From a virus (taxonomy: Duplodnaviria; Heunggongvirae; Uroviricota; Caudoviricetes), in the IMG/VR virus record IMGVR_UViG_3300036790_000223: 64,000 nucleotides of DNA, one strand, 5' to 3'. A program made the translations under genes and the position numbers. Below are positions 18,020 to 58,952 of the stretch, piece by piece. Positions within the stretch are counted from its first letter, which is position 1. Every line of letters starts with the position of its first letter. Below the pieces are notes generated by a model. The model made no database searches and was not told where the DNA came from. It worked only from the letters and a program-made list of their open reading frames with translations.

Positions 18020-18242
18020 CGGCTGGTGCAAGGCAGCCGGACTGGCGGTGCTGGCGGCTTGCTGCCTCGGCAACGGGGTAGGTGCCCGGCATGGAATGCC
18101 CTGGTACACCCAGATGCTGATCATTGCCGGAGGGCTGCTGTTCCACACCATGGCAGCGGTCATCGGGGCCATGCTCACCGAGCTGGCCCGCATCAGTAAG
18201 GATATGGAATCAATTCCACAGGAAGGGAAAGCACACCAATGA
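17961..18242 (+). CDS. possible small membrane protein
   Basis: MSRLTLAITLATTPAL..hydrophobic segments; overlaps the RecT 3' end. Confidence 0.35.
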   Translation: MSRLTLAITLATTPALNRTDGWCKAAGLAVLAACCLGNGVGARHGMPWYTQMLIIAGGLLFHTMAAVIGAMLTELARISKDMESIPQEGKAHQ

Positions 18243-18970
18243 CCGACGACAACGAGCTGACCTCACCATTCTCCAGCTACTACGACAAAGCATGGCCGTT
18301 CCGCTACCGGGCCACGCTGCACCTGTTCACCATCGCGGGCGGCACCCCGTCCAACCCGGACGTGGCCTCGGCCTGGATTGCCTCCAAGATGGAGGTCAAA
18401 GACGACCGGCTGGCTGAGATGGTGGCCGAGGCTATGGACGCCCGGGGCATCACCCAGCAGCAAGCCGAAGAGGAAGTCGCCAAGCTGCGCCACCTCAACG
18501 GCTTCAAAAAGGACGACAACGGCCTGTACATCGAGGGGCGCCATGTCAAGGCAGCGCTCAAAGAGATGGCCAACGTCGCCGCTGCGAGCGGCAAGCTGCC
18601 GCTGCAAAAGTGGGGCAAGACCCAGAAGTTCATCCGCTCGTTTGTCGCTGAGCACATCATGGTGCCGGAGACGCGGATCTACCTGGGCACCGATGCCCCC
18701 GACCGGGTAGAGCAGTCGTTCCCGGAGAACAAGCGCGCCGGGGTGCGTGGCATCCAGCTCACCGAGATCGTGGAGGACGCTCAGGTGACCTTCGAGGTCA
18801 TCAGTGACTGGGAGTTCACCGAGGAGCAGTGGGCACTGCTGTGGCTGACCGGCGAGATGCAGGGGCTGGGTGCAGCCCGCAGCCAGGAGTATGGCCGCTA
18901 CAAGGTCATCGGCTGGGAGCGGGTGGCGACCACCGGCAAGACAGCGCCGAAGGCCGGAGGGCCGGAGTAG
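18239..18970 (+). CDS. hypothetical protein (243 aa) downstream of recT
   Basis: Complex composition, no motif recognised. Confidence 0.55.
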   Translation: MTDDNELTSPFSSYYDKAWPFRYRATLHLFTIAGGTPSNPDVASAWIASKMEVKDDRLAEMVAEAMDARGITQQQAEEEVAKLRHLNGFKKDDNGLYIEGRHVKAALKEMANVAAASGKLPLQKWGKTQKFIRSFVAEHIMVPETRIYLGTDAPDRVEQSFPENKRAGVRGIQLTEIVEDAQVTFEVISDWEFTEEQWALLWLTGEMQGLGAARSQEYGRYKVIGWERVATTGKTAPKAGGPE

Positions 18971-18980
18971 AAGCACCAAA

Positions 18981-19027
18981 GAGCCCGCCCGCACCCCCTA
19001 AGGCGGCGAAGGGGTGCGGGCGGGCTC
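18981..19027. terminator. bidirectional hairpin terminator, 17-bp perfect arms
   Basis: GAGCCCGCCCGCACCCC ... GGGGTGCGGGCGGGCTC between convergent genes. Confidence 0.5.
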
Positions 19028-19034
19028 GCTTGCG

Positions 19035-19541
19035 TTACGGGGTGCGACGGTGGTTGAGGTCGTCACGTCCCGCACTGGTGGTGGCCATGAGCTGGCAGTG
19101 CTCCGGGTCGCTCAGGATACGGTCCACCTGATACGACACCTGAGCCAGCTCACTGGCCAGGGACTGCGCCCCAGCCAGCCAGCTTTCGGCTCCCTGGGCG
19201 TGGGCTTCGGCTACTGCATGCGCCAGGGCGTTGCGGTAGTTGATCCCGCGCATGTCCGCCACAAACCCGCGCACCAACCGCAACAGCGGGTCGGTAGCAC
19301 CAGGCTCGGGCGGGGGCTGTGCCCGCCAGTCCACCGGGGCGGGCTCGTCGTCCCGCTTGGTGCGGCGGTTGAGAATCCGCCCCGGGTAGATGGTTTTCAG
19401 GTCCTCGCTCACCGTGGTGGAGCTGGCTACTCCCAGTGCCACGGCGATTTGCTTGATCGAGTACCCGTCCAGGTAGTACCGCAGCGCCGCCTCCCGGCGG
19501 CGCTGCAGCTGGGGAACGGTGGGGCGGGCGAACCCGGTCAC
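19035..19541 (-). CDS. HTH protein (sigma-70 region-4/LuxR-like helix-turn-helix)
   Basis: RRREAALRYYLDGYSIKQIAVALGVASSTTVSEDL; GTG start overlaps upstream stop (GTGA). Confidence 0.55.
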   Translation of the reverse strand: MTGFARPTVPQLQRRREAALRYYLDGYSIKQIAVALGVASSTTVSEDLKTIYPGRILNRRTKRDDEPAPVDWRAQPPPEPGATDPLLRLVRGFVADMRGINYRNALAHAVAEAHAQGAESWLAGAQSLASELAQVSYQVDRILSDPEHCQLMATTSAGRDDLNHRRTP

Positions 19542-20395
19542 GTCAGCCGGGCAGCACGCAGCGCCCGGTTGTAGTCGGCCCGGATGACCTCCTCCACCCC
19601 GCGCCAGGCGGGAGAAGCTGCCCGGCGGAACGCCAGCCACTGGGTGGCGGTGCGCTGGGACAGCTTGGAACCCAGGCGGTTGAGATTGATCTGCTGGTGG
19701 CCTGCGATCAGCGACGCGACCGCCGTGAGGATGGCCGAGTCAAACCGCCGCCCGGCGAACTGACCCTCCTCCGGCACCGAGTCCATGATCACATGCAGCG
19801 TCTTGCGCAGCAGGTCGGCACCTTCGGCTGGGGTCAGCTTGCGGGTGCCGGTGCCGTGGATGATGCGCATCAGCGTGCCCGCTGCAGCGATGGACTTGCC
19901 ACCTCGGCCCTCGGTCACGACCAGACCCATCTCATCCAGCACCTGCTCGGCGGCCAGCTCGTGCGGCAGCTGAGCCGTGACGCGCATGCGCCACTCCTGG
20001 ACCTTGTTGTGCTGGCGGCGGCCCCGGGCGATACCCAGTGCCGCTGCAGCCTCGTCGGCCATCCCGGTGATGTCGGTGGCCAGCACGGCCCACATCTCGA
20101 TGTCCGGGTCGATCTCCTGCAGCGCCAGCAGCCGGTGCTGGCCTTCGGTAGCGACCAGGGTGCCATCGGGGCGCCTGGTAAGCGTGAGCACCTCCGCCAG
20201 CATCCAGTCCCAGTCCCGGGTCAGCCGCTCGACCTTGCCAGGCTCGGTGTTGCGCTGGACCCGCTGGTCGACAACCACGTCGCCAACCCGGACCTTCCCG
20301 ACACTGCGGGGGTCTGACTTTCCGCCTGGACCAGAGATCCATTCGGTTCCCGTCATGGTGTTCCTTTCCTTCTCTGCTGTCACTCGGGGGGCCAT
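19538..20395 (-). CDS. ParB-like nuclease-domain protein
   Basis: DGTLVATEGQHRLLAL resembles the ParB N-terminal GxxR(H)R box; 285 aa. Confidence 0.6.
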   Translation of the reverse strand: MAPRVTAEKERNTMTGTEWISGPGGKSDPRSVGKVRVGDVVVDQRVQRNTEPGKVERLTRDWDWMLAEVLTLTRRPDGTLVATEGQHRLLALQEIDPDIEMWAVLATDITGMADEAAAALGIARGRRQHNKVQEWRMRVTAQLPHELAAEQVLDEMGLVVTEGRGGKSIAAAGTLMRIIHGTGTRKLTPAEGADLLRKTLHVIMDSVPEEGQFAGRRFDSAILTAVASLIAGHQQINLNRLGSKLSQRTATQWLAFRRAASPAWRGVEEVIRADYNRALRAARLT

Positions 20396-20556
20396 TAGTG
20401 CTGGCCCATTGCGATGTTCAGGTGCAGGTTGGGCTGCGGGTTGAGCCGGGCTGTGATGACCCGCCTTAGCCCGTTAGGCAGCAGCTCAGGCGCGGTGTTG
20501 CGTTCGGCCTGGCACTGCTGGTCGCCACAGCCTTCCTGTGGCTGGGGTGCTGCCAT
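20395..20556 (-). CDS. possible small protein (53 aa)
   Basis: MAAPQPQEGCGDQQCQAERNT...; stop overlaps ParB-like start (TAATG); GGAAGGGAAGGGAAACC upstream. Confidence 0.3.
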   Translation of the reverse strand: MAAPQPQEGCGDQQCQAERNTAPELLPNGLRRVITARLNPQPNLHLNIAMGQH

Positions 20557-20636
20557 TTGGTTTCCCTTCCCTTCCTTTAGGTGCCCGGGTTAAGAGGCAC
20601 ACTGCGCGGTAGTATATACGCTGCCAGCGTAAGGAG

Positions 20637-20645
20637 GTAAACGGG
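20637..20645. promoter_or_regulatory. GTAAACGGG copy embedded in RBS region (GGAGGTAAACGGGTATG)
   Basis: In the divergent intergenic region 20557-20646, which also has a TAGTATATAC box. Confidence 0.3.
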
Positions 20646-20646
20646 T

Positions 20647-20880
20647 ATGAATATTTCGTTCACCGGACTGTACGGGGGCAGTGTGCAGCCACGCCACACC
20701 ATCGAGGGCAACGTGGCCCTGAGTGTGTGGACACCGCTCGGGTTCATGGACACGACCCTGTCCCCGGCCGTAGCCCTGGCGCTGGCGGCCGAACTCACCC
20801 GTCTGGCGGGTAGCGGTAAGGAACCGGAATCGGACGGCGCAGGGACGCTCTCAGCGCCAGGGAAGGTGTGGAATGACTAA
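20647..20880 (+). CDS. hypothetical small protein
   Basis: 77-aa ORF. Confidence 0.45.
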   Translation: MNISFTGLYGGSVQPRHTIEGNVALSVWTPLGFMDTTLSPAVALALAAELTRLAGSGKEPESDGAGTLSAPGKVWND

Positions 20881-21196
20881 GTTCCCGGTCACCTGGACAG
20901 ACGGCGACGGCAACACCCAGCACGGCGAAGCTGAGATGGTCTTCTCCACCCTGGGCACCACGGCGCCGTACCTGGCGGCTGTCACCACCCATACCCAGAA
21001 TGTGCAGAACCTGGTGATGGCCGTCAAGAACCTGGAAGCACAGGTGAACCTGGCTGGGGGATGGTTCGCCCCGGCTAGCTCGCCAGCAGCGCCCGTCCCC
21101 AACGCAAACGGGAAGATCTCAGTGGGTGACGGGCTGCGTAAGGCCGCAGCTCACGCCCGGCAGATCGTTACTGACGAACCCACACCCGAGCCCTAG
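20873..21196 (+). CDS. hypothetical small protein
   Basis: 107-aa ORF overlapping previous by 8 nt. Confidence 0.45.
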   Translation: MTKFPVTWTDGDGNTQHGEAEMVFSTLGTTAPYLAAVTTHTQNVQNLVMAVKNLEAQVNLAGGWFAPASSPAAPVPNANGKISVGDGLRKAAAHARQIVTDEPTPEP

Positions 21197-21339
21197 CCCG
21201 GCACCCTGACCCAGGGTTACGCTAAGCGAATCTGAGCCAGGGCAGCGCTAAGGGGACCCGGCTCAGCCACCCACCGTTCGCCAGGCGAGGAGGCTGTTTT
21301 GTCCCATGCTGCCGTTTTGCCCCTCGCTCGGCGGGTCTT

Positions 21340-22155
21340 ATGGGGTGGGCACGTCTGGATGACGACTTCTTCTCCCACCCCAAGATCGGTGCCCTGCTAG
21401 ACGACGAGCGCGGTGCCGCAGCAGTGGGGCTGTGGACCTTGTGCCTGGCCTGGGCACACCGCCACACCCGCCAGCCCGGCAAGGTTCCGGGCGACATCCC
21501 GGCCTACCTCCCGCGCCAGTTCCTGGGACCAGCTGGTCCCGTGCTCGCTGGGCTGCTGGTGAAGGAGGGGCTGTGGGAAGCGCGCCGGGACGAGGGCGGC
21601 ACCCTGCTCACCGATGGCTGGCACATCCACGACTTCCACCTGTACCTGCCGTCTGAGGCCATGTCCCGGAGCCGTTCTGTCGCTGGCCGCAAGGGTGGTC
21701 AGGCCAGCGGCAAGGCCCGAAACGAAGCTAGTAGCTTGCAAAACGAAGCTAGTAGCTCACAAGTCGAAGCTACGGCGAAGCAAACGCGAAGCATGGCCCC
21801 GGGTACGGGTAAAGGTAGTAAGTCTGTTGACGTTGTAAGTGGTTCGGTTAGAGACGATGTCGAGCGCTTGTGCGCTCGACTAGCTGACAAGATCGAAGCC
21901 AACGGAAGCAAGCGGCCGACGATCACCCAGGGCTGGCGTGATTCCTGCCGCCTGCTGCTGGACAAGGACAAGCGCACCGAGGCTCAGGTGACCAAGGCCA
22001 TCGACTGGAGTACAAACGATAGTTTTTGGCGTGTAAACATACTAAGTATGCCTAAGCTACGCGAAAAGTACGACCAGCTCAGGCTGGCCGCCCAGCGTGA
22101 GAACGGCGCTGGCCGCCCAGCGATAGACCCGGCCGACGAGTGGAAGCGGCGCTAA
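21340..22155 (+). CDS. putative replication initiator/organiser-like DNA-binding protein
   Basis: N-terminal MGWARLDDDFFSHPKI domain; mid-gene 21-bp tandem repeats; 3' half AT-rich (lambda O-like ori-in-gene arrangement is inference). Confidence 0.45.
   Translation: MGWARLDDDFFSHPKIGALLDDERGAAAVGLWTLCLAWAHRHTRQPGKVPGDIPAYLPRQFLGPAGPVLAGLLVKEGLWEARRDEGGTLLTDGWHIHDFHLYLPSEAMSRSRSVAGRKGGQASGKARNEASSLQNEASSSQVEATAKQTRSMAPGTGKGSKSVDVVSGSVRDDVERLCARLADKIEANGSKRPTITQGWRDSCRLLLDKDKRTEAQVTKAIDWSTNDSFWRVNILSMPKLREKYDQLRLAAQRENGAGRPAIDPADEWKRR
21721..21783 (+). repeat. 21-bp tandem repeat x3 (AACGAAGCTAGTAGCTNNCAA) inside CDS
   Basis: Encodes NEASSLQ/NEASSSQ/VEATAKQ heptads; seen directly. Confidence 0.7.
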
Positions 22156-22276
22156 AAGGCGCGTGGCCTAAGTAGTATTCCCCGGGTTGACACCCAGTAA
22201 GGTTCCACGTCATACTTGCGCGTGTAAGTTAGACCCGTAAGTTACGTGTTGAACCTCCAGGTCGAAAGGAATCGAG

Positions 22277-23107
22277 TTGGAGATCACCGGAGTTCACCCG
22301 GCTGCGGACATGTTCCCGCGCCTGCCCCAGCACGAGCTGGAAGAACTCGCCAGCGACATCAAGGAGCACGGGCTACGGGAGCCGATCACTCTCACGTCTG
22401 ACGGGCTGATCCTGGACGGCATCAACCGGGAAGCGGCCTGCCAGCTGGCCGGGGTGAAGCCAGAAACGACTGTCTACGAGGGCGACCCGGCAGCGTTCGT
22501 CATCTCCCAGAACATCCGCCGCAGGCACCTGACGGTCGGTCAGCGGGCTGTAGTCGAAGCGAAACTAAAAGTTACGGCGGCGACCGCCGTAACTTTTAGT
22601 AACTGGATAGAAACAGCCGAGGAAAGGACTCAAGCTAAGGAAACGACCCTGAAGCAAGCTCTCTACGTTGTCCGTCACGCTTCTGACCTGGCAGATCAAG
22701 TCCTGGCGGGCCTTCTTGGCTTGGACACCGCCTACCAGGAAGCGCGTAAGCGCAAGCTAGCGGCGGAAGCCGAGGACGCCAAGCTGACGCGCCTTCAGCA
22801 AGCGGCCCCTGACCTCTACGACCGCGTTGTCGAAGACGACAGTCTGAACGTGGACGAAATGCTGGCCGCCGCCGCCGAGCGTGAGCGCAAGGCGAGGGAG
22901 GAGCGGCGCAGGACAACCCAGAGCATCACCGACCTGGTGGACACCACGGCCACGTACAGCGGTCACGAGGAATCCGTCTTCGAGCTGTACGACGAGAAGG
23001 AAGCCCCGCCGGGCCACGCACTGACGGTTGAGCAGATAGACCAGGCAATATCCGTACTCCAGCAGTGGAAAGAGCTGCTGCTGAGCAGCAAGGAAACGAC
23101 CACATGA
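22277..23107 (+). CDS. ParB-like nuclease-domain protein (TTG start)
   Basis: LREPITLTSDGLILDGINREAACQLAG ParB N-terminal box; GAAAGGA RBS. Confidence 0.7.
   Translation: MEITGVHPAADMFPRLPQHELEELASDIKEHGLREPITLTSDGLILDGINREAACQLAGVKPETTVYEGDPAAFVISQNIRRRHLTVGQRAVVEAKLKVTAATAVTFSNWIETAEERTQAKETTLKQALYVVRHASDLADQVLAGLLGLDTAYQEARKRKLAAEAEDAKLTRLQQAAPDLYDRVVEDDSLNVDEMLAAAAERERKAREERRRTTQSITDLVDTTATYSGHEESVFELYDEKEAPPGHALTVEQIDQAISVLQQWKELLLSSKETTT
22565..22598. repeat. palindrome with 16-bp perfect arms inside the ParB-like gene (candidate parS/operator)
   Basis: CTAAAAGTTACGGCGG cg ac CCGCCGTAACTTTTAG; GTAAGTTAC-like half-sites also at 22226-22250. Confidence 0.6.
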
Positions 23108-23646
23108 GTAAAGGCGGTGTCAACATGGCGCGTGTTCGGCTGCACGAAATCGTGGAGCAGGCGGCCCGTAACGTCACGGACGCGGACGGCCGGTTCCACA
23201 AGAAAGACCACATCGACCAGGTAAAGGGAATGCTGGCCACGGTTCAGCTATCCCCGGTCACGCAGGAAGAACTGAAGTATCGGGAGGCGCGGAAGCTGTG
23301 CGAGGATTTCGTCCGCACCCGTACCCCACGTGCGCGGGGTAGCCGCAACTCGGCCATCCCAACGCTCTACAGCGACGGGAGCCTTCTGGTGCTGACTAAC
23401 GGTGATCGCGTCTGGATGCAGGACGCCAACCGCGATGACCTCATCCAGTGGAACCGGTCTGCCTCAGAGCGGGTGCAGAACGCAATGGCCCGCCAGGATG
23501 ACCGCAGGCAGTACGTGGAGCAGCGGTTGCAGTTCTGGAAGGGGCGTGACGACATCAAGCACTTGGGTGAACTGGAGCGGCATTTCTTCAACTACACACC
23601 CGACGCCGGAGAAGAGGGCTTCGGCGAAGAGGAAGAAGACGAATAA
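23104..23646 (+). CDS. hypothetical protein, acidic C-terminus
   Basis: ATG overlaps upstream stop (ATGA); ends FGEEEEDE. Confidence 0.5.
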   Translation: MSKGGVNMARVRLHEIVEQAARNVTDADGRFHKKDHIDQVKGMLATVQLSPVTQEELKYREARKLCEDFVRTRTPRARGSRNSAIPTLYSDGSLLVLTNGDRVWMQDANRDDLIQWNRSASERVQNAMARQDDRRQYVEQRLQFWKGRDDIKHLGELERHFFNYTPDAGEEGFGEEEEDE

Positions 23647-23672
23647 CAAAGCCGGGGGGTAAGTTTGTTGCC

Positions 23673-23849
23673 GTGAGGGCTCACCGTGTGCGCCGCGTCC
23701 GCCGCCGCTTCATCTGCGCATTGTGCAGGCGCGACGTCACGGTGGGCGTGTACGCTGGCTTGCTCCTGGAGGACGGCTGGCGCAGGTGGGCACACACTTC
23801 CTGCATCGTAGAGCGGCAGCAGGAGAGCCAGCGTAGGGTACCGGCATGA
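23673..23849 (+). CDS. possible small Zn-finger protein (58 aa)
   Basis: FICALCRRDV...HTSCI; stop overlaps next ATG. Confidence 0.3.
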   Translation: MRAHRVRRVRRRFICALCRRDVTVGVYAGLLLEDGWRRWAHTSCIVERQQESQRRVPA

Positions 23850-24478
23850 TAAAGAAATTCCTGATCATGGGCGCCCTCTTGCTCGGCGCCCTCGCTTTTG
23901 CTATCCCCGCTCAGGCTGCCACGGCGTCGCCTGTCGTTTACGGATTCGGCACGACTGGTGCTGCCACCGGCTGGACGCACCCACTGACCCAGCCTCGCAT
24001 CCTGTACCTGGGCCAGGGTGGTGCCCCCATCGTCACCATCCGCAGCTGGCCTGCCGCGTGGAAGGCCGGATCACCTACAGCGACCAGCGCTGATGCGATC
24101 TGGCTCAACAGCTGTCGCCCGACCTGTGCCCAGGCACCGTATGTGCGTCACTCGGCCACGCTGCTGCTCTGGGGTCAGCTGCGGCACAACGGTCAGCCGT
24201 ACTACTCCCGGCTCAACATCCGCTGGGCGGGCGGTCGGATGCTGCTGGCGTTCGGTGTCCACGGCGGAACCGTTGCGGCCTGGTACACGCTGAGTGCGGT
24301 CGTCACCCCACCGCCGCCGCCGCCGGTTATGTGCCACCCCAAGACCCCGTCCGACGGCTGCTATGAGCCAGGGGAGTTCTGCTCCAAGGCTCAGCACAAC
24401 ACGACCGGCCTGGCTGGTGACGGCAAGACCATCGCCTGCAGGGACGACAACGGCACCTGGCGCTGGCTGGCCACGTAA
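23846..24478 (+). CDS. secreted protein (signal peptide, poly-Pro linker)
   Basis: MIKKFLIMGALLLGALAFAIPAQAATA; PPPPPP; 210 aa. Confidence 0.55.
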   Translation: MIKKFLIMGALLLGALAFAIPAQAATASPVVYGFGTTGAATGWTHPLTQPRILYLGQGGAPIVTIRSWPAAWKAGSPTATSADAIWLNSCRPTCAQAPYVRHSATLLLWGQLRHNGQPYYSRLNIRWAGGRMLLAFGVHGGTVAAWYTLSAVVTPPPPPPVMCHPKTPSDGCYEPGEFCSKAQHNTTGLAGDGKTIACRDDNGTWRWLAT

Positions 24479-24483
24479 CCCTC

Positions 24484-25719
24484 ATGGACCTGCCCCCCAA
24501 CGACCTCCAAGCCGAGCAGGCCACCCTGGGCTCGATGCTGCTGTCCGCCAACGCCCTGGAGACGGTGCGGCAGACCCTGTCCTCACCCGACTTCTTCCGC
24601 CCTGCCCACCAGATCGTGTTCGAACACATCACCGAGATGCACAAGCAGTCCATCCCGGTGGATGCGGTCACCCTGAACGAGCGGCTGGTGGCGTCGGCCC
24701 AGATCGCCAAGGTGGGCGGTGCCCCCTACCTGCACACCCTGCTCGCCAGCGTCCCGACTGCCGCCAACGCAGGCCACTACGCCCGGATTGTGCGGGCCAA
24801 GGCGGTGCGCCGCCGCCTGATCGAGGCTGGTACCCGCATTGCCCAGATCGGCCGGGAGGGTGAAGACGAAGCGCAGGGTGCGACCGAGCGTGCCCTGCGT
24901 GAGGTGGAAGCCGTCCGGGACTCCGGCCTGGGTGACGGGCTGACAGCGGTCACCTACCAGGAGTTCCTGGACGCAGGGTACGAAGGTGACCCCTACGACT
25001 GGGTGGTGCCGAACCTGCTGGAGCGGGGCGACCGGATGATCCTGACCGGCACCCCCGGCATCGGGAAGTCCACCTTGTTCCGGCAGATTGCGGTCTGTGC
25101 TGCGGCTGGCATCCACCCGTTCACCTACGAGGCCATCCCGGCGCAGCGGGTGTTCATCCTGGACTGCGAGAACGGCCCAGCCCACATCCGCCGTAAGCTG
25201 CGCCCCCTGGTGCATCAGGCTGCCGCCACCCAGAAGCCAGTGCCGGAGGCCAACTTGTGGATCGAGTCCCGCATGGACGGGATCGACCTGGCTCTGGACA
25301 AAGACGTCAGCTGGCTGCTGCGCCAGGTGGCCAGCCTGAACCCGGACATCCTGGCCATCGGCCCGCTGTACCGGCTGGCCCCCAGGGCGCTGAACGACGA
25401 CGACGACGTGGCCCCGATCCTGACCGTGCTCAACCTGATCCGGGCACGGGGGGCGTGCGTGCTGATGGAGGCCCACCACGGGCACACCTCCGACATGCGG
25501 CCCAGGGGCAGCTCGGCCTTGATGGGCTTCCCGGAGTTCGGGTTCGGGCTGCGCTGGCCCCGCGAAGACAACCCCGGAGCCCGGACGGCAGAGATTGTGC
25601 ACTGGCGAGGAGACCGGGATGAACGGCAATGGCCCCGGGCACTAATTGCCGGGGGCCGCTGGCCGTGGTCGGCATATAATGTACCCCAGAACCAACAAGG
25701 GAATGGATGGGGAACATGA
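24484..25719 (+). CDS. DnaB-like replicative helicase (DnaB N-domain + RecA-like P-loop core)
   Basis: DLQAEQATLGSMLL..FFRPAHQIVFEHI N-domain; ILTGTPGIGKST Walker A; FILDCENG. Confidence 0.8.
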   Translation: MDLPPNDLQAEQATLGSMLLSANALETVRQTLSSPDFFRPAHQIVFEHITEMHKQSIPVDAVTLNERLVASAQIAKVGGAPYLHTLLASVPTAANAGHYARIVRAKAVRRRLIEAGTRIAQIGREGEDEAQGATERALREVEAVRDSGLGDGLTAVTYQEFLDAGYEGDPYDWVVPNLLERGDRMILTGTPGIGKSTLFRQIAVCAAAGIHPFTYEAIPAQRVFILDCENGPAHIRRKLRPLVHQAAATQKPVPEANLWIESRMDGIDLALDKDVSWLLRQVASLNPDILAIGPLYRLAPRALNDDDDVAPILTVLNLIRARGACVLMEAHHGHTSDMRPRGSSALMGFPEFGFGLRWPREDNPGARTAEIVHWRGDRDERQWPRALIAGGRWPWSAYNVPQNQQGNGWGT

Positions 25720-27940: not shown

Positions 27941-28272
27941 GGGGCCACCTGGTTGACGTGGGAACCGTGTACGGCTCGGCGGAGGAAGACATGGCTTACG
28001 CAAGGATCGGCTGGGACTCTGATGTCTACGTCTTCTCCGATGGCAAGATGCTGGGCTGCTACGGCTGCTGCCTCCACGGGCAGGCCATCAACGGCTACTT
28101 CGTGGACCACGCTTACCCCGATGCTCCGGTGCTCATGGCAGCGCACCTGACCCACCACCGCGAACATGGCGACAAAGTGCCAGACCACACATTTGAACGA
28201 CTGAGCGAAGAGGCTCTCCACCCCAGACAGGAACAGGAACAGGAAGAATCGGACCATGCCAAACCAGACTGA
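27937..28272 (+). CDS. hypothetical protein
   Basis: 111 aa; ATGA overlap. Confidence 0.45.
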   Translation: MRGHLVDVGTVYGSAEEDMAYARIGWDSDVYVFSDGKMLGCYGCCLHGQAINGYFVDHAYPDAPVLMAAHLTHHREHGDKVPDHTFERLSEEALHPRQEQEQEESDHAKPD

Positions 28273-29437
28273 ATTCCAGTGGTTTCAGCCACGAGCCCCC
28301 GACGACGACCAGGAGACCCTGGTCCTGCCTAAGGGCTGGCTGGCCGCACCGCACCGCCGCATCGTAGCGCTGGTGCCTGCCCACAACGAGGCAGCAGACA
28401 TCGCCGCGACCATCGAGTCGCTGCTGCATCAGACCCGCAAGATCGACGACATCGTGGTGGTGTCGGACAACTCGACCGACGCCACGGTGGACATCGCCTG
28501 CATGTATGACGTGACCGTGCTGGAGACGGTGGACAACACCCGCCGTAAGTCTGGTGCGCTCAACTACGCCTGGCACACCCGTGCCCGTGAGGCCGACATC
28601 GTGGTCTGCATCGACGGCGACACCCAGCTGCCAAAGCACGCGGTGGCCGACTGGGAGCGCGAGTTCGCCATGAACCCGCAACTGGGTGGCTCATCCAGCC
28701 AGCCCATCATGACCGGGTACGGATTCCTGCCCCGGTTGCAGCGGTTCGAGTTCTCCAAGAGCGTGCAGATGTCCCTGGCTCGTGGCTGGTGCCGCGTGGT
28801 CTCCGGGACTGGCTGTGCCTACCGGGGTGCTGCGCTGGCCGAGGCAGCCCGGCGCCCGGGGCAAGTTGGCCCGTGGACGTATGAGTCGGTGGTGGAGGAC
28901 TACCACCTGACCTACCGCATGCGCCAGGCCGGGTGGCATTGCGAGATGTCACCCACCGTGTGGTGCTGGACCGGCTCGATGACCTCGATCAAGGCCCTGT
29001 GGTACCAGCGCATCAAGTGGCAAGCCGGTACCTGTGCTGACTTGCTCACCTTTGGCTTCAACCGGCTGAACTGGCGCGAGTGGATGCAGCAGGGGTTCAT
29101 GCTGCTGTGCATTGCGTTCTGGGTGGTGTGGCTGTCGCTCAACGGCACCCAGGTAGCGACCGGCGGCTTCCACTTCAACCCGTTCTGGCAGTGCATCCCG
29201 CTGATCTTCGCGGCTATGGAGGTGATCCACGTCCGCATGATGCCGGAGCGCGACTGGAAGGACTACCTGCTCGCTGGCTGCCTGGTGCAGATGACGGTGT
29301 ACGCGATCCTGTCGACGGCGTGGGGCTCGGCCAGCTGGGTCAAGGTGCTGCGGGCCAAGATGGGCGACCTGTGGGCGCCGCAGTACCGCGCTGAGGGCAT
29401 GGCGGCTGAGGACATGAAGATCGGGGTGGGAGCATGA
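28256..29437 (+). CDS. processive family-2 glycosyltransferase (membrane-embedded synthase type)
   Basis: LVPAHNEA..SLL; VVSDNSTD; VVCIDGDTQL (DxD); QRIKW (QxxRW variant); 4-5 C-terminal TM helices. Confidence 0.8.
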   Translation: MPNQTEFQWFQPRAPDDDQETLVLPKGWLAAPHRRIVALVPAHNEAADIAATIESLLHQTRKIDDIVVVSDNSTDATVDIACMYDVTVLETVDNTRRKSGALNYAWHTRAREADIVVCIDGDTQLPKHAVADWEREFAMNPQLGGSSSQPIMTGYGFLPRLQRFEFSKSVQMSLARGWCRVVSGTGCAYRGAALAEAARRPGQVGPWTYESVVEDYHLTYRMRQAGWHCEMSPTVWCWTGSMTSIKALWYQRIKWQAGTCADLLTFGFNRLNWREWMQQGFMLLCIAFWVVWLSLNGTQVATGGFHFNPFWQCIPLIFAAMEVIHVRMMPERDWKDYLLAGCLVQMTVYAILSTAWGSASWVKVLRAKMGDLWAPQYRAEGMAAEDMKIGVGA

Positions 29438-31507: not shown

Positions 31508-31553
31508 CCGCATAGCTTACCGCACTGCATCCCCTGCGCGGTAAGCTATGCGG
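31508..31553 (+). terminator. hairpin with 16-bp perfect arms after GH16 gene
   Basis: CCGCATAGCTTACCGC ... GCGGTAAGCTATGCGG. Confidence 0.45.
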
Positions 31554-32607: not shown

Positions 32608-34029
32608 TTGAACGCCGCAGAGATCATCGCGGCCATGGGCGAGTTCGTCCCGCCAGGCCGCATCCAGCTGGACCCGTCGCAGCAGGCAGGCTTGCTGGCC
32701 TACACCGCTGACCTGTGTGATGCCAGCCCGAACGCCGAAAGTGAACGCCAGCGTTACCGCAGCGTGATCAGCCGCCAGATCCCCATGGACGAGGTCATGC
32801 TGCGGCACTGGCTGGCCGGTAAGACCATCCTGGTCACCGGGGGCACCGGCTGCATCGGTTCGGCGCTGGTGGGCCAGCTGACCCGCTATGGCGCCGCCCG
32901 GATCGTCAGCGTGAGCCGGGGGCTGACTAGCTGCTGGACCCGCTACAGCTCGGTGGATTACCTGAATGCCGACGTGCGTGACAGCAGCGGGTTGCTGCAG
33001 GTCTTCCGGAAGGTCCAGCCCGACATTGTGTTTCACCTGGCGGCTCAGCGTGAACCCGGTCTGGCCGAGCGTGAGGTGCACCGCACCGTGAGCACCAACG
33101 TGCTCGGTACGGCCAACGTGGCCGACCTGGCCGACTACTTTGGGGTGGCTGAGCTGATCCATGCCTCCACCGGCAAGGCGGTGCGCCCCTACTCCCGTGA
33201 GGTCTACACCGCGTCTAAGCGGGTAGCTGAGTGGGTCCTGGCGCAGACCGCAGCACGGTCGGAGGTGGCCATCGCCGCTGCCCGGTTCACCCACGTGGTA
33301 GACAACGCCGTGGTCTACCGCAACATCCAGCGCGCCGCTGCGGACAACACCACGCTGCGCATTCACGACCCGGGTATCGCCTTCTACGTGCAGTCCGCGC
33401 TGGAGAGCGCTCAGCTGCTGCTGCGGGCGGGGCTCGGGGCTATGTCCGGTGCGCTGAGCATCCTGGCCATCACCGACCTTGGCTGGCCGGTGAGCCTGCT
33501 GGATCTCACGCTCGGCACGCTGACCCACATGGGCACTGCGGCCCCGGTCTACTTCAGCGGGTACGACGCCGGGTATGAGGCGGTGCCGTTCCCGGGCCTG
33601 TATGACCCGCGCACCGCCGGAGACGTCAGTCCGCTGCTGAACTGCTTTGAGGCGCTGACCGTTGCTGAGTACGCCGGAGTGGACACCGCGCTGGCCCGCT
33701 ATGCAGCCTCATCAACGGAGGCAGGGGAGGCCGCCCTGCAGGAGCTGAGGGAGCTGTGTGCCGACACCGAAGACGGCCATGACCTGCGGGTCGGGCTCGA
33801 TATGCTGTTGTGGATAACCCTGGGGGCCACGCTGCGTGCAGCGCCGGAGCGGGCACTGCGGCGCGTGGAGGCCATCGCTGCACCGTTCAAGCAGACCATG
33901 AGCCGGGACTGCCGCCGGATTCTGTCGGCAGTGGAGTACTACGCGCAGAACGGAGAAGGGCGCGGTGCAGGGGCAGCAGGAGTTCACGTGGGCAGTTCCG
34001 TCGATGGAGCGGCTCGTCATCCCTACTGA
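32608..34029 (+). CDS. CapD-like NAD-dependent sugar epimerase/dehydratase (extended SDR)
   Basis: ILVTGGTGCIGSAL Rossmann motif; YTASK catalytic YxxxK; 473 aa. Confidence 0.75.
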   Translation: MNAAEIIAAMGEFVPPGRIQLDPSQQAGLLAYTADLCDASPNAESERQRYRSVISRQIPMDEVMLRHWLAGKTILVTGGTGCIGSALVGQLTRYGAARIVSVSRGLTSCWTRYSSVDYLNADVRDSSGLLQVFRKVQPDIVFHLAAQREPGLAEREVHRTVSTNVLGTANVADLADYFGVAELIHASTGKAVRPYSREVYTASKRVAEWVLAQTAARSEVAIAAARFTHVVDNAVVYRNIQRAAADNTTLRIHDPGIAFYVQSALESAQLLLRAGLGAMSGALSILAITDLGWPVSLLDLTLGTLTHMGTAAPVYFSGYDAGYEAVPFPGLYDPRTAGDVSPLLNCFEALTVAEYAGVDTALARYAASSTEAGEAALQELRELCADTEDGHDLRVGLDMLLWITLGATLRAAPERALRRVEAIAAPFKQTMSRDCRRILSAVEYYAQNGEGRGAGAAGVHVGSSVDGAARHPY

Positions 34030-42433: not shown

Positions 42434-45400
42434 GTGACCGTCTCCTCCAACGGCACCCCGACTGTCATCGCCGGTATCACTGGCTCAGCAAGCATCAGCG
42501 TCACTGGCCAGTGGCCGACCAACCCGACTGCCCCGGCCGCTGGAGACCTGCTGGTGGCGGTCATCGGCGGGTACGGCACCACTAGCTGCACCGTCCCTAC
42601 AGCTCCGTCTGGGTGGACGCTGTGGAACTGGTGCTACGGCATCACCGCCGGGACCGGCGCCAGGTCCCTGACCACCGTTACCGCCTACTACATCAAGAAC
42701 TCCACCGGGTCCGACACGGTCCCGACGTTTAGCGCCACAACGGCGGGCACTGCAGCCGACAACGGCCTGCGCTGCGTCATCTACGACCTGTCCGACTCCG
42801 GCGGTAGCACCCCGGTTCTGTGGACGGACGGCATCACCGCACTGCCGGTTGCCGGGACTGCGACCGTGTTCACTGGTCCGGTCCCCGCTGGTTCGCTCGG
42901 GATCGCCTCGGCCACGATCTCCCAGGGCACCACTGCAGCCACGAACACGTGGACCACGCCGTCCGGCTTCACCGCAGCCACCGGTAACGAAACCGCGTCG
43001 CTGCGGTCCCAGTTCGGCTCGTTCTATACCTCTTCCGCACCGACCACCGGCAACGGCATGTCTGTGGCCATCGTGCACTCCCGGACTTCCACCGAGCAGC
43101 CCGCGATTGCGCTGGTGGCGGCACCGCCGTCCTCTTCGGGGGTCAGGCGGTTTCAGGCGTCGCCGTACCAGGCACCCACCACCGCCGCTGCAGTGCTCAC
43201 CAGCCATACGTTCGCCGCACAGCCCGACGAGCTGATCGTCGCCTCGGCAGGCGTAGGCAATGGCGTTGGCACCGCGCCGACCAGCCTGGTTGCCGTCGAC
43301 AACACCAGCGCCACCCTGACGGCGCTGGTCACCGAGCTAGCTGGCGCCGACTTCGGCCTGGCGGGGGTCTTCGCCGAAGACGCAGGTGCCACCCCGGCTG
43401 TGACGTCGGTCACGGTTACCGCCGCCCCGTCCACGGTGCACGACCCGTGCCTGGTGGTATACCGGTTCGCCGGGGCGGCGGTAACTGCAGACCAGACCGG
43501 CACCACCGCCCACGGCACCACTGCCACTTTGTCGATTACCCCGGCCCAGACCGGCTCGGTGATCGTCGGTGCGTCCGGTGACGACGGCTCCACGGCACTG
43601 ACCCCGAACGCCAGCAGCCTCGGCTACACCTCCACCACTGGTGGCGCCGGGGACCGCATCAACGCCTACATGGGCCTGGCCTACACCACGGCCTCCAGTG
43701 CGGTCACGGTCGGCTGGTCTACCGCTCCTACCGCGCTCGGCAATGCAGCGGCGGAGATCATCCCCGCTCCTCCCGCAGCTAACCCGGCACCGCTGTACCC
43801 ATTGCGGAGGCCGGTCCGGGCGCAGGCTTTGCCCCGGCGGGGCGGCCGGGTCTACCGGAGCGGTCTGCCTAACCGGATTCTCACCAACAACTTTGAGGGT
43901 GGGTCCTCCGGCACCACCATCACCACCACTAACTCCAACGGGATTAGTGGCGCTGCGTTCGACGTGGTGTCCATCGGCACCAGCGCCACCCTGGCGTTCG
44001 ACAACACTGAGGCTGCGCACGGCCTGCTGTCGATGAAGGTGGCCACGGGCGGCACCTCCACCACGTCCCTGGCTGAGTGGACCTTCTCCGAAGGTCCCCA
44101 GCTGACGATCTACTTCCGGCTGTACCTGTTCCTGTCCGCCACACCGACAGCGGCCATCAGCCCGTTCATGGTCCGCTCCGGCGCGTCTGTGGCAGCCTCG
44201 CTGCTGCTGACCACGCCGGGCACCCTCCAGCTGCGCGACGGCACCAACACCACCCAGGTGACCTTCACCACCCACCCGCCAACTGGGTCCTGGTACCGGA
44301 TCGAGGGTTACGTCACTGGTGCCAGTGGCACTGGTGGCGCGATCTCGGCCAGCCTGTACTCGCCGCTGGACTCGCTGACCCCGGTTGAGACCCACACCGT
44401 CACCGGGATCAACACCACCGGGGCGATCAGCGCCTACTGGTTCGGCCAGGCCAACACCGTCGCCAGCAGTGGTCCGTTCTGGATCGACGACATCGGGATC
44501 TCCCCGGTCGGGTTCCTCGGCCCGGCGGCGTTCCCGCCCGTCACCTCCGGGCCACCGCTGACCGCACTGGACGGTCCGGTCCGCGCACCTGTCCCGGCCC
44601 GCCGTAAGGGTGGCATCGCACGGGCCATGAGCCCGCTGGCGATCTCCTACGCCGGGCCACCGCTGACCGCACTGGCCAGCCCGGTCCAGGGACGCCGCAG
44701 GCCCACCCCACGCGGCCGGGTCTATGGCATCAGCCGCCCCGCAGTCACCGTCGCGCCACCGACCCCAGCGCCGCTGTACCCACTGAGCAAGCCGGTCCGT
44801 GCGGTCATCCCAGCCCGCACCCGGGGTGGCCGGGTCTACCAGACGACAGCCCCTACGGTCCCCGCCATCCAGACCGGCGCAGCGCCGTGGTACCTGTTCC
44901 CCACGTTCCCGCAGTGGACGGTGCTGGAGTCGTCTACCGGGCTGCTGCCTGCCGTAGCCATCATGAACAACGGCAACGGCGACGTTGTCTGGGATTCGAC
45001 CTGGGGTGCTCTCGCTACTGCCCTGCATGCCAAGGGCATCAAGCTCCTCGGTTACGTCTACACGCAGTTCGGCACCCGGCCCGAGGGTGACGTTGAGACC
45101 GCCATCGGCAACTACCTCCAGCCTGGGTTCACCCCTGGCCTGGACACCGTTGACGGTATCTTCTTTGACCAGTTCAACAACCTGACCGGCAGCGAGTCCT
45201 ACTACAACGACCTCTGCATCTCGGTCAAGAGCCAGTTCGAGGCGGTCGGCTCCGGCGCGAACAGCCCTCTGATCTGGGGCAACCCGGGCACGGCTATCGC
45301 TGCGTCCTACCTGACGCTGCCCATCGACGTGTTTGTCACGTTCGAGGGTCCGATCACCGCCTACCAGAACTTCACCCCGTTCAACGTCAACGCCTCGGGG

Positions 45401-47068
45401 TTCATCTCTGGCGCTGGGCAATGGCCCCGGCAGCGGTTCGCGCACATCGTCTTCGAGGTCGTTCGCGACCAGGTGGACGGGGTCGTAGACCGGGCCTGGC
45501 TCAACTACGCCGGTTGGGTCTACACCACCAACGGACCCGGCGACACCAACCCGTACGCCTTCATCCCCGGCAACGACTACCTGAACGACCTGGTAGCCCG
45601 GGGAGCCAGCGAGCCTCCGCTGCTGCCGCAGGGCATCCCGCCCTGGATCTACCCGCAGACCTCACCGGTCAGCGCACCGAAGCAGCGCCCCGCCCGGGGT
45701 GGGCGCGTCTACAGCCGCAGCGGTTCTCACGGTGGACTCGGCCCGGCCCTCACCGCATTGCGCGGCCCGGTTGCAGCTGCCCGGCGCAAGCTGCCACCCC
45801 GGGGCAGGGTCTACTCGGCCCGGGGCACGTTCTCCGGCAGCGGACCCGTGCTCAAGGCGCTGGCCAAGCCGCTGGCTGCCGCCCTGCGCATCCTGCCGCC
45901 GCAGGGGCGGGCACTGTCTCGCCGGGGTTTGCTCAGCGGCACTGGAGCGGTTCTCAAGGCGCTAAGTGCCCCGGTCCGTGCCCGGCCTAAGCTGCCACCC
46001 CGTGGGCAGGTAACCTCCCGGGCGGGCATCCCGTTCACCGGGTTCGGCCCGCCGCTCACCCTGCTGCGCTCCCCGGTCAAAGCAGCGCCGAAGCTCCCAC
46101 CACGGGGCAGGTCCGCAGCGAACACCGGCACGTTCGGTGGTCAGGGTGCAGCGGTCTACCCGATCCACCAGCCGGTCTCGGTTCACCATCCGCTGCCGCC
46201 ACGTGGACGCGTCTACAGCAACCCCGGTGGCCCGGTTGTTGCTCCGCCGCCACCGGGGTTCGGTCCTGCGCTCACGCCGCTGCACATGCCGGTGCGTGCC
46301 AGCTGGCCTAAGCAGGTCAGTGGTGGCACTGGCCATGGACTGCGCGGTACCCGCAATGGCGTTGGCCCGGCGCTCTACCCGCTGCACCTGCCGGTCAAGG
46401 CGGCACCGAAGCTACCACCCCGGGGCCGGGTCTACCTGCTGCCGGTGCGGGCGGTGCAGAGCCCAGCGGCACCTCCGCTGCATGTTCCAGTCCGGGCGGC
46501 CTGGCCTCAGCGCATCAGCGGTGGCACTGCTCACGGCTTGCGAGGCTTCCGTGGCGGCGCAGGACCAGCACTGGTTCCGCTGCGCACCCCGGTCAAGGCT
46601 GTTCCTAAGCTGCCGCCACGTGGCCGGATCTTCCAGTTCCTGACTCGGGCGTTCCAGTCACCACCGGTTCCTCCGCTGCATGCTCCAGTGCGGGCAGCAC
46701 CGCACAAGGCACCTGCCCGGGGCCGGATCATCACCAGCGCCGTGCGGCTGGTCCCGTTCATTCCCACGTCGGGACCGGCACTCACCCCGCTGCGGATGCC
46801 AGTCCGTGCCCGGCCGAAGCTCCCGCCGCGAGGCTGGTGCTACACCACCCCGCCGTACGTGGCACCGGGTCCGCCATCGGGTCACGCCACCGGCTGGAGC
46901 GTGGGCACCCCGCAGTCTGCCTGGATCACTGGCCTGCTGCAGGGTGCCTGGGAAAGCGGCCTGCCCGCTAGCCCCATTGCCTGGAACCCGAGCGGCCCGC
47001 AGGCCGCATGGCAGAGTGGCCCGCTGACTTCTGCCTGGGAAAACGTGTCGCCAATGACCGGAGGGTGA
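42434..47068 (+). CDS. giant tail fibre / receptor-binding protein (1544 aa) with central glycosidase-like domain and C-terminal Arg-rich modular repeats
   Basis: Long T/S/G/A-rich N-part; central W/aromatic-rich domain (IDVFVTFEG, GIFFDQF); ~20 copies of P-V-R-A-x-P-K-L-P-P-R-G-R-V-Y. Confidence 0.8.
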   Translation: MTVSSNGTPTVIAGITGSASISVTGQWPTNPTAPAAGDLLVAVIGGYGTTSCTVPTAPSGWTLWNWCYGITAGTGARSLTTVTAYYIKNSTGSDTVPTFSATTAGTAADNGLRCVIYDLSDSGGSTPVLWTDGITALPVAGTATVFTGPVPAGSLGIASATISQGTTAATNTWTTPSGFTAATGNETASLRSQFGSFYTSSAPTTGNGMSVAIVHSRTSTEQPAIALVAAPPSSSGVRRFQASPYQAPTTAAAVLTSHTFAAQPDELIVASAGVGNGVGTAPTSLVAVDNTSATLTALVTELAGADFGLAGVFAEDAGATPAVTSVTVTAAPSTVHDPCLVVYRFAGAAVTADQTGTTAHGTTATLSITPAQTGSVIVGASGDDGSTALTPNASSLGYTSTTGGAGDRINAYMGLAYTTASSAVTVGWSTAPTALGNAAAEIIPAPPAANPAPLYPLRRPVRAQALPRRGGRVYRSGLPNRILTNNFEGGSSGTTITTTNSNGISGAAFDVVSIGTSATLAFDNTEAAHGLLSMKVATGGTSTTSLAEWTFSEGPQLTIYFRLYLFLSATPTAAISPFMVRSGASVAASLLLTTPGTLQLRDGTNTTQVTFTTHPPTGSWYRIEGYVTGASGTGGAISASLYSPLDSLTPVETHTVTGINTTGAISAYWFGQANTVASSGPFWIDDIGISPVGFLGPAAFPPVTSGPPLTALDGPVRAPVPARRKGGIARAMSPLAISYAGPPLTALASPVQGRRRPTPRGRVYGISRPAVTVAPPTPAPLYPLSKPVRAVIPARTRGGRVYQTTAPTVPAIQTGAAPWYLFPTFPQWTVLESSTGLLPAVAIMNNGNGDVVWDSTWGALATALHAKGIKLLGYVYTQFGTRPEGDVETAIGNYLQPGFTPGLDTVDGIFFDQFNNLTGSESYYNDLCISVKSQFEAVGSGANSPLIWGNPGTAIAASYLTLPIDVFVTFEGPITAYQNFTPFNVNASGFISGAGQWPRQRFAHIVFEVVRDQVDGVVDRAWLNYAGWVYTTNGPGDTNPYAFIPGNDYLNDLVARGASEPPLLPQGIPPWIYPQTSPVSAPKQRPARGGRVYSRSGSHGGLGPALTALRGPVAAARRKLPPRGRVYSARGTFSGSGPVLKALAKPLAAALRILPPQGRALSRRGLLSGTGAVLKALSAPVRARPKLPPRGQVTSRAGIPFTGFGPPLTLLRSPVKAAPKLPPRGRSAANTGTFGGQGAAVYPIHQPVSVHHPLPPRGRVYSNPGGPVVAPPPPGFGPALTPLHMPVRASWPKQVSGGTGHGLRGTRNGVGPALYPLHLPVKAAPKLPPRGRVYLLPVRAVQSPAAPPLHVPVRAAWPQRISGGTAHGLRGFRGGAGPALVPLRTPVKAVPKLPPRGRIFQFLTRAFQSPPVPPLHAPVRAAPHKAPARGRIITSAVRLVPFIPTSGPALTPLRMPVRARPKLPPRGWCYTTPPYVAPGPPSGHATGWSVGTPQSAWITGLLQGAWESGLPASPIAWNPSGPQAAWQSGPLTSAWENVSPMTGG
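45650..46900 (+). repeat. intragenic array of ~26-34-aa modules (GPALTxLxxPVRAxPKLPPRGRVY)
   Basis: At least 14 consecutive modules here; further copies near 43790, 44560-44830. Confidence 0.7.
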
Positions 47069-57690: not shown

Positions 57691-57694
57691 AGAA

Positions 57695-58859: not shown

Positions 58860-58875
58860 CAGCGGGTCACGGCGG

Positions 58876-58936: not shown

Positions 58937-58952
58937 CGGGGGGAGGGTTTAG

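Follow-up and report, generated by a model that had tools for sequence, protein, structure and literature searches.

The IMG/VR virus record IMGVR_UViG_3300036790_000223 (Caudoviricetes) is a metagenome contig of 116,795 bp, of which the 64 kb analyzed here are referred to as the window. At 21340-23107 of the window two genes lie side by side, one for a replication initiator and one for an orphan ParB-like protein, and each holds a candidate cis-acting element within its own coding sequence: tandem repeats in the first and a perfect palindrome in the second. We give a slightly better than even chance to the reading that these are two independent cis-acting modules, an in-gene origin and the cognate site of the orphan ParB-like protein. 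The locus comprises the following features; GC3 denotes the GC content at third codon positions and HTH a helix-turn-helix.

21340-22155 (+): replication initiator gene, 271 aa, with a winged-helix N-domain (residues 1 to about 125), a variable linker (about 120-170) and a conserved O/DnaD-like C-domain (171-255)
21720-21794 (+): candidate iterons, namely two 21-bp units with the 13-bp dyad AAGCTAGTAGCTT, one degenerate unit and two GCGAAGCA boxes at 11-bp spacing
21795-21880 (+): A+T-rich stretch 3′ of the repeats, GGGTACGGGTAAAGGTAGTAAGTCTGTTGACGTTGTAAGTGG..., a candidate DNA-unwinding element; GC3 0.40-0.50 versus about 0.9 in the rest of the gene
22004-22060 (+): A/T-recoded conserved peptide DSFWRVNILSMPKL, specific to the window, with A/T-ending, rare codons almost throughout; contains the lowest-GC 40-mer of the window
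22187-22216 (+): promoter-like TTGACA-18-CATACT, intergenic, 5′ of the ParB-like gene; agrees with the consensus at 10 of 12 positions, with no further match in 20300-24600
22222-22247 (+): two operator-like 13-nt imperfect palindromes, GTGTAA-G-TTAGAC and CCGTAA-G-TTACGT, with centers 13 bp apart, just 3′ of the -10 box (dyads read from the sequence)
22277-23107 (+): orphan ParB-like gene, 276 aa, TTG start, with a ParB N-domain, a helical HTH DNA-binding domain and C-terminal helices
22564-22600 (no strand assigned): perfect palindrome ACTAAAAGTTACGGCGG-CGA-CCGCCGTAACTTTTAGT, candidate binding or loading site of the ParB-like protein
24484-25719 (+): DnaB-like replicative helicase gene (Pfam DnaB N-terminal domain, 8.5e-30; AAA_25, 5e-22)

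Repeats within the Initiator Gene

The initiator product has no Pfam or NCBIfam match. Its PHROG matches are a DnaD-like helicase loader, a replication initiation O-like family, a replisome organizer (1e-15) and a replication initiation protein, and the O-like families align to the C-domain, not to the N-terminal DNA-binding domain. In the family alignment both of these domains are conserved, while the linker between them varies in sequence and length. The protein thus has the two-domain organization of initiators of the lambda O/SPP1 G38P type, which have a DNA-binding N-domain and a recruiting C-domain. The repeats occupy codons 127-148, inside the variable linker, so that direct repeats lie within the coding sequence of the initiator itself, as is also characteristic of that type. 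Tandem Repeats Finder (TRF) reports them at 21720-21772, with a period of 21, 2.5 copies and 87% matches. The two good copies, at 21720-21740 and 21741-21761, are 90% identical, and each contains a 13-bp dyad that reads AAGCTA-G-TAGCTT. CGAAGC cores recur at 21723, 21744, 21765, 21776 and 21787, at spacings of 21, 21, 11 and 11 bp. A second iteron cluster comparable to oriR of SPP1 was found nowhere in the window. The DnaB-like helicase gene lies downstream, separated from the initiator gene by three inserted genes.

The repeats adjoin the most A+T-rich part of the window, which the preliminary description had correctly placed at the 3′ half of the initiator gene and the following intergenic region. 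The lowest-GC kilobase is 21719-22718 (57.9% versus about 65%), the lowest-GC 500-bp stretch is 21804-22303, and the lowest 40-mer is 22010-22049 (32.5% GC). GC3 falls from 0.8-0.95 to 0.40-0.55 in three patches, at 21670-21880, 22000-22060 and 22547-22700. Because these collapses are local in an otherwise high-GC genome, they point to constraint at the DNA level. The composition of 21795-21880 fits an unwinding element, and close relatives keep the stretch; another candidate for this function is the second A+T patch, at 22004-22060. There the conserved peptide DxFWRxNILSMPKLR is written GAT AGT TTT TGG CGT GTA AAC ATA CTA AGT ATG CCT AAG CTA in the window, with a GC3 of 0.33, against 0.80-1.00 (mean 0.92) in the 48 relative loci in which the motif was found. 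This window-specific recoding gives rise to the lowest-GC 40-mer. The DNA might in fact unwind at this patch; alternatively, the patch might hold a regulatory site within the gene or a group of TAAGT-type sites.

At least 819 proteins, most of them encoded by actinobacterial phages and prophages, make up the family of the initiator. Its three closest relatives, which share 55-60% of their amino acids with it, have units AGCTAGTAGC, AGCTACTAGCT or AAGCTCAGAGCTT at the same position and with the same 21-bp period, and their dyad core is written AGCTA(G/C)TAGCT or AAGCTCAGAGCTT. After these units comes a segment conserved at the DNA level, GGGTACGGG...GGTAGTAGTAA, seen in L240, L242 and L243, and then in each case a GC3 dip of its own, to 0.1-0.5. 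Among 48 non-redundant full-length relatives, the density of tandem arrays (TRF score at least 50, period at least 9) is 2.09 per kb in the linker versus 0.109 per kb in the remaining 395 kb, a 19-fold difference. The array periods cluster at 11-13, 21-24 and 36 bp, near multiples of the helical repeat, and the units differ between relatives (GAAGCAAA, GGGGGGCCACA, CGTTACTAACGG, CATGGCAAATGC and others). Half of the periods are not multiples of three, and the family arrays are therefore DNA repeats rather than peptide repeats. Absence of the repeats from relatives had been named in advance as one observation that would speak against an origin; what was found instead is arrays at the same linker position, in different sequences.

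A relative of the DnaB-like helicase was detected by tblastn in 47 related loci. In the 25 loci listed, it starts roughly 50-2000 nt from the initiator match, and mostly about 50-200 nt from it, so the neighboring helicase gene characteristic of the lambda O/SPP1 G38P type is found both in the window and across the family. We consider it probable, by analogy with that type, that an origin lies inside the initiator gene. The proposal was made in the preliminary description, and it is well supported by the family matches, the winged-helix N-domain, the linker repeats, the arrays of the relatives and the downstream DnaB-type helicase. It would supply a concrete candidate origin for the many initiators of this kind (819 homologues) in actinobacterial phages and prophages, most of them annotated as hypothetical, together with a rule for finding origins in relatives, namely helical-period repeats plus a GC3 dip in the linker.

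The ParB-Like Protein

The strongest PHROG match of the ParB-like protein is phrog_21315 (2e-21), followed by weak ParB-like families. No Pfam match was obtained at E ≤ 0.01, and the score against TIGR00180, 15.1 bits versus a cutoff of 58.45, is far below the level of canonical ParB. Its AlphaFold2 model has a mean predicted local distance difference test score (pLDDT) of 88.5, and Foldseek matches it to 7bnr, 7ng0, 6sdk, 1vz0 and 8qa8 (E 2.7e-6, probability 1.0) over 210-220 columns. The structural alignment with CTP-bound ParB, Noc, Spo0J and KorB spans the N-domain and the DNA-binding domain, with long C-terminal helices after them; the protein accordingly shows the order of a ParB CTPase clamp, an N-terminal ParB/Srx fold followed by a helical HTH domain. 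Even its closest homologues share no more than 48% identity with it. DNA methyltransferase fusions occur among the relatives, and homologues are found in phage early or recombination regions, for example adjoining YqaJ/RecT.

A partner ParA was sought in several ways. No ParA or deviant Walker-A protein was present among 39 window proteins scanned with Pfam, no KGGxGK[ST] motif of the ParA type occurs in any frame of the 64-kb window or of 82 related loci, and on reading the N-terminus of the ParB-like protein the ParA-binding motif LG[KR]GL is absent. Together, the model and these searches mark the window protein as an orphan with a ParB fold and a DNA-binding domain, as opposed to a partition ParB.

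The window encodes a second ParB-like protein of 285 aa (19538-20395, minus strand; PHROG "ParB-like partition protein," 2.4e-4), whose gene overlaps the end of an HTH/sigma-70-region-4-like gene (19035-19640, minus strand). The two ParB-like proteins are unrelated in sequence. The second could be a ParB-type activator of the Tet/JBP dioxygenase encoded at 56467-57690, though it does not adjoin that gene. The same role was rejected for the protein encoded at 22277, which has a DNA-binding domain and lies 34 kb from the dioxygenase gene.

A Palindrome within ParB-Like Genes

The arms of the palindrome (22564-22580 and 22584-22600) are 17 nt long, 100% complementary and separated by a 3-nt spacer. 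The preliminary description had rightly noted a palindrome inside the ParB-like gene; its arms are longer than the 16 bp given there for 22565-22598. The palindrome is unique in the window, where 0.03 chance matches are expected. It encodes residues 96-108, a variable, low-pLDDT linker between the N-domain with its GQRA helix and the HTH domain.

The first three homologues checked (L001, L003 and L063) showed no clear palindrome, and the pattern emerged at 80 loci once the position was anchored on the RRHLxxxQRA motif. At the equivalent position within the gene, 33 of these 80 viral loci have a palindrome with arms of 11-16 nt. When the set is reduced to 66 non-redundant loci of about 6.5 kb each, the best palindrome of the whole locus falls in a single 145-nt window after the motif in 27, versus 1.6 expected. 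As a control, the same peptide was synonymously recoded 100 times for each of 74 loci: the natural sequence was in the top 5% at 40 loci and beat all 100 recodings at 22, with a mean best arm of 9.1 nt observed against 5.9 nt recoded. Because the palindromes exceed what synonymous recodings of the same peptides produce, selection acts on the nucleotides. In high-GC relatives, moreover, GC3 dips exactly at the palindrome position. The palindromes are diverse in sequence, with many centered on GCAAATTTGC or GCAGATCTGC, and they occur alike in stand-alone ParB-HTH proteins and in ParB-methyltransferase fusions.

Close relatives differ most where the palindrome lies. L210 and L227 are 90-100% identical at the DNA level, but only 27-77% identical around the palindrome and the part of the gene coding for the DNA-binding domain. 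The two genes are unlike at 9 of 16 arm positions; by our reading of the sequences, every change is mirrored on the opposite arm, with the core kept. Similarly, L165, L166, L167 and L168 have flanks that are 86-97% identical, a linker window that is 58-72% identical, and four different palindromes. A fast-changing symmetric site next to a fast-changing recognition region fits a cognate pair of protein and site that avoids cross-talk. A precedent for such joint variation exists in the ParB-parS systems of P1 and P7 and in the immunity regions of lambdoid phages, in which the site and the recognition region vary in a similar way. From these sequence patterns, we judge the chance that the palindrome is the cognate site of the encoded ParB-like protein to be about even or marginally above. 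L210 versus L227 and L232, and L165 to L168, which include ParB-like and ParB-methyltransferase genes, form natural specificity-swap sets, and L165 to L168 and L210 versus L227 offer natural pairs for direct binding tests. ParB-fold proteins are widespread in phages, where fusions of ParB to methyltransferases are common, and the in-gene palindrome would provide a candidate DNA target for dozens of them.

Upstream Half-Sites and the Relation of the Two Elements

Short half-sites recur from the initiator gene to the palindrome, as had been described before. GTAAGTTA is found at 22224 and 22237 only (0.12 expected), and TAAGT occurs six times on the plus strand in 21650-22700, compared with 24 times on both strands across the whole window. 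AAGTTAS occurs seven times in the window, four of them within the 370 bp of 22226-22595, and the 8-mer AAGTTACG is common to 22239 and both arms of the palindrome. The palindrome half-site and those upstream do match, though over only 7-8 nt, and the resemblance is no family trait. By estimate the sharing has a p of roughly 1e-3, a value inflated by the local A+T-richness, and it is suggestive. A half-site match upstream of the gene is shown by the window and by L221. The two 13-nt imperfect palindromes that follow the promoter-like site share AAGTTA(C/G) with the palindrome arms. In this phage the ParB-like protein may plausibly control its own gene; the pattern is not family-wide.

Two sets of loci bear on whether the origin and the palindrome belong together. 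Some loci have a palindrome-bearing ParB-like gene but not this initiator, and among initiator-family loci a ParB-like relative is present in few and never between the initiator and the helicase, in contrast to the DnaB-like relatives in 47. The two modules are therefore independent, and their adjacency is specific to this phage and defines no system.

Alternative Explanations

Several observations weigh against the reading of the locus as an in-gene origin beside a ParB-binding site. For the origin, a repeat was present as first described at 21721-21783, but three copies was a generous count: the third (21762-21782) matches at 12 of 21 bases by reading and keeps its first half, CGAAGCTA, alone. 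At least one strong array was found in 20 of the 48 relatives, or about 42%. GC skew, suggested earlier as a check, is uninformative, with a minimum near 15 kb that coincides with a switch in gene orientation, and the A+T patch at 22004-22060 could be the true unwinding site or be unrelated. For the palindrome, a significant one is missing from about half of the family. The palindromes are single-copy within about 3 kb on either side (with one extra exact 11-mer in L193 as the exception), which leaves one site per locus. Upstream of the gene, palindrome half-sites show no enrichment across the family (22 observed versus 21.2 expected). The nucleotide-binding P-motif is DGRNR in the family (D, G, N and the final R invariant, the first R in at least 90%) and DGINR in the window protein, a substitution that may impair nucleotide binding. 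The window palindrome itself has a 3-nt spacer and folds as RNA at -37 kcal/mol (z = -6.1), and compensatory changes that preserve symmetry are expected of a structure-only hairpin or cruciform as well.

The 21-bp repeats could instead be low-complexity coding sequence born of slippage in a disordered linker, without origin function and with the origin elsewhere. The period of 21 is a multiple of three and yields the peptide repeat NEASS(L/S)Q, and the linker is variable, with residues 145-166 predicted to be disordered; the restriction of strong arrays to a minority of relatives would also fit. This account is rather improbable, however, as periods of 11, 13, 22 or 23 bp, found in half of the arrays across the family, are impossible as peptide repeats. 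The units are dyad-symmetric, GC3 collapses locally, and the array of the window goes on at 11-bp spacing.

For the palindrome, one question is whether structure matters rather than sequence, in which case it would be a hairpin. In RNA the hairpin could terminate or attenuate transcription within the gene or act in processing or stability; in single-stranded DNA it could be, for example, a priming signal or a nuclease target. The stable fold noted above would be expected, a terminator scan gives a hit on both strands at the GC core with AACTTTTAGT after it, and pairing-preserving compensatory change is the classic signature of a selected structure. Yet 19 of 35 strong palindromes have no spacer, and hence no loop, and four more have a single central base. 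Of the mismatches in imperfect palindromes, 0 of 26 are sense-strand G-T pairs, which would form G-U wobbles in the mRNA, versus about 4 expected. No Rfam match was found in a scan of 20500-24500, palindrome included. The spacerless centers, the lack of wobble mismatches and the lack of an Rfam match favor a double-stranded site for a dimeric protein over a hairpin; in addition, the GCAAATTTGC or GCAGATCTGC core is conserved in many members, and a terminator one third of the way into the gene would abolish the conserved C-terminal two thirds. We therefore regard a hairpin function as unlikely, though less so for the copy in the window, given its spacer, its strong RNA fold and the terminator hit.

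The palindrome might also be the parS centromere of a ParABS system that keeps the phage as a plasmid prophage. The protein has a ParB-like fold with a DNA-binding domain and C-terminal helices, and spo0J of Bacillus subtilis contains a parS site, a precedent for a palindrome inside parB. A related initiator is found on a whole 104-kb Actinomadura rubrisoli contig that is also listed as viral, and the window covers 64 of 116.8 kb. Against a centromere stand the failure to find ParA in the 64-kb window or the 82 related loci, the TIGR00180 score of 15 bits versus 58, the missing LG[KR]GL motif and the presence of a single site, as well as the location of homologues in early or recombination regions and the fusion of some to methyltransferases. 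Partition is accordingly very unlikely. The term "parS-like" used in the preliminary description holds in that a cis site is very probably tied to the ParB-like gene as a family-wide trait; its implication of a partition centromere is not supported, as no ParA was found in the window or the related loci, the ParB score is far below threshold and there is a single site.

Still less weight goes to the palindrome as part of the replication origin, like the palindrome that flanks the A+T-rich region of ori-lambda, or as a second initiator-binding region. It does lie within the same low-GC kilobase, immediately after the iteron-like 9-mer AGTCGAAGC at 22552, and a 20-nt stretch at 22139 recurs at 22552 with 80% agreement. 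It is, however, about 780 bp from the repeats, and its equivalents travel with ParB-like genes that lack the initiator; nor does the ParB-like gene accompany the initiator family as the DnaB-like gene does.

Proposed Mechanism

If an in-gene origin and a ParB-binding site do lie side by side, as we favor, the two would work separately. By analogy, the winged-helix N-domain of the initiator would bind the dyad-symmetric direct repeats of its own linker DNA (21720-21794), the oligomerized initiator would melt the adjacent A+T-rich DNA at 21795-21880, and the C-domain would recruit the DnaB-type helicase of the phage (24484-25719). A dimer of the ParB-like protein would recognize the 37-bp palindrome as double-stranded DNA through the HTH domain that is encoded immediately downstream, so that one gene would supply the protein together with the parS-like site at which it docks or loads. 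The palindrome occupies the sole part of the gene whose peptide is free to vary, and site and recognition region would diversify together between related phages. The bound protein may spread or slide, regulate the promoter at 22187 through 22222-22247, act in counter-silencing, or help with replication or DNA modification.

A more general proposal, which we hold to be possible but doubtful, is that orphan phage ParB-like genes, whether for stand-alone ParB-HTH proteins or for methyltransferase fusions, are one-gene modules consisting of a nucleotide-switched clamp and its own hypervariable loading site in linker DNA, the palindrome of the window being one example, set here beside the candidate origin. 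If so, the clamp would spread or slide from a single in-gene site over the phage genome, delivering methylation, regulation, counter-silencing of A+T-rich DNA or help with hypermodification, and site and specificity would diversify against cross-talk between co-infecting relatives.

Genome Context

The window has a GC content of about 65%, and its confidently predicted genes have a GC3 of roughly 0.8-0.9. It encodes a terminase large subunit (59479-61023), a YqaJ/RecT recombination pair, the DnaB-like helicase and a thymidine-hypermodification cluster, and the source is therefore a large, high-GC actinophage of roughly 117 kb. A DNA similarity search found no nucleotide-level relative among 50,697 deposited phage records. 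The region was independently assembled in a Logan run, in which the gene calls agree and the ParB-like gene is again 276 aa long. Initiator relatives are found on contigs of similar size: L006, which equals L084 (Actinomadura rubrisoli NODE_2, 104,490 bp), and L004, L005, L010 and L050 (viral contigs of 100-110 kb). NODE_2 is a whole assembly contig of a cultured strain and is listed among viral contigs too. These contigs of 100-117 kb may represent a family of large actinobacterial phages or phage-plasmids.

The hypermodification cluster (52600-57690) contains an amino acid:DNA transferase (52600-53721), a pyridoxal phosphate (PLP)-dependent enzyme (54277-55125), a P-loop nucleotide kinase 3 (55865-56452) and the Tet/JBP dioxygenase (56467-57690). 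A family-2 glycosyltransferase and a sugar epimerase/dehydratase lie upstream of it (28256-29437 and 32608-34029). Post-replicative hypermodification of thymidine, of the kind that PMC13229309 describes, is probable for this phage. The top-scoring tandem repeat of the window (55187-55242, 21 bp, 2.7 copies, 94% matches; CGCCGCACTCAATGCGGCATT) falls inside a predicted minus-strand open reading frame (ORF; 55122-55643) between the PLP-enzyme and kinase genes. The roughly 900 bp past the Tet/JBP gene (57690-58600) are without a convincing ORF and overlap the bin with the most negative GC skew (58001-59000, -0.18).

Further perfect inverted repeats, with arms of 16-17 nt and loops of 9-14 nt, are present at 18981-19027, 31508-31553 and 62291-62331. 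The first of these closely follows the stop of the plus-strand ORF 18239-18970, is also close to the 3′ end of the minus-strand ORF 19035-19640, and looks like an ordinary bidirectional terminator. In the 1,544-aa product of ORF 42434-47068, residues 818-1045 form a Spherulin4 (spherulation-specific family 4) domain; this product may be a tail protein or one acting on the host surface.

Comparison with Known Systems

The initiator of phage lambda, O, consists of an N-terminal DNA-binding domain and a C-terminal recruitment domain, and its origin lies mid-gene, in the part coding for the linker, where dyad-symmetric direct repeats are followed by an A+T-rich stretch. The window resembles lambda in its two-domain initiator, in a linker-coded candidate origin, in dyad-symmetric direct repeats placed before an A+T-rich stretch, and in the PHROG O-like match to the C-domain. 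The similarity stops short of the N-terminal DNA-binding domain, however, and the partner here would be a phage DnaB-type helicase, whereas lambda uses the P-type loader to hijack the DnaB of its host. There are also two good 21-bp units with 11-bp-spaced boxes in place of the four 19-bp iterons of lambda, and the hosts here are high-GC Actinobacteria. In SPP1, the direct repeats of oriL lie inside gene 38 and have an A+T-rich unwinding element as their neighbor; gp38 binds them and acts together with gp40, a helicase of the DnaB family whose gene lies downstream (PMC6316719). The window shares with SPP1 the in-gene repeats, the A+T-rich neighbor, the downstream DnaB-type helicase gene and the replisome organizer match. 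SPP1 differs in having the loader gp39 and a second origin, oriR; neither a loader nor a second repeat cluster was seen in the window, and the sequence relatedness is remote.

The ParB-like protein resembles ParB-parS, Noc-NBS and KorB-OB in that its N-domain and helical DNA-binding domain align structurally with those of these proteins and its candidate site is palindromic, and the specificity determinants of P1 and P7 ParB-parS are a parallel for co-diversification of site and protein. It differs in lacking ParA and a ParA-binding motif, in scoring below the TIGR00180 and Pfam thresholds and in its DGINR P-motif. The 37-bp palindrome is unrelated in sequence to parS (TGTTNCACGTGAAACA), NBS or OB, and it is a single in-gene site whose position is conserved across a phage family. 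The protein also resembles the ParB-fold fusions and orphans covered by a 2025 survey of the ParB-CTPase fold, being an orphan phage ParB fold with many relatives fused to N6/N4 or MT-A70 methyltransferases; that survey notes phage methyltransferase fusions, and by a word search its text mentions neither palindromes nor parS-like or in-coding sites (PMC12704722). A 2026 paper reports that some phage ParBs activate neighboring T-dioxygenases, and that such ParBs adjoin the enzyme and have a nucleotide-binding and a dimerization domain but are without a DNA-binding domain (PMC13229309). This phage likewise carries a Tet/JBP dioxygenase and a thymidine-hypermodification cluster; its ParB-like protein, encoded 34 kb from the Tet/JBP gene and with a DNA-binding domain present, falls outside that group. 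No published description of an in-gene site for phage ParB-like proteins was found, many subscription-journal papers being beyond the reach of the search, and the novelty of a family-wide in-gene palindrome is provisional. The candidate origin is a further case of the anatomy already known from lambda O and SPP1 G38P, and the unexpected result is the conserved yet hypervariable palindrome in orphan phage ParB-like genes.

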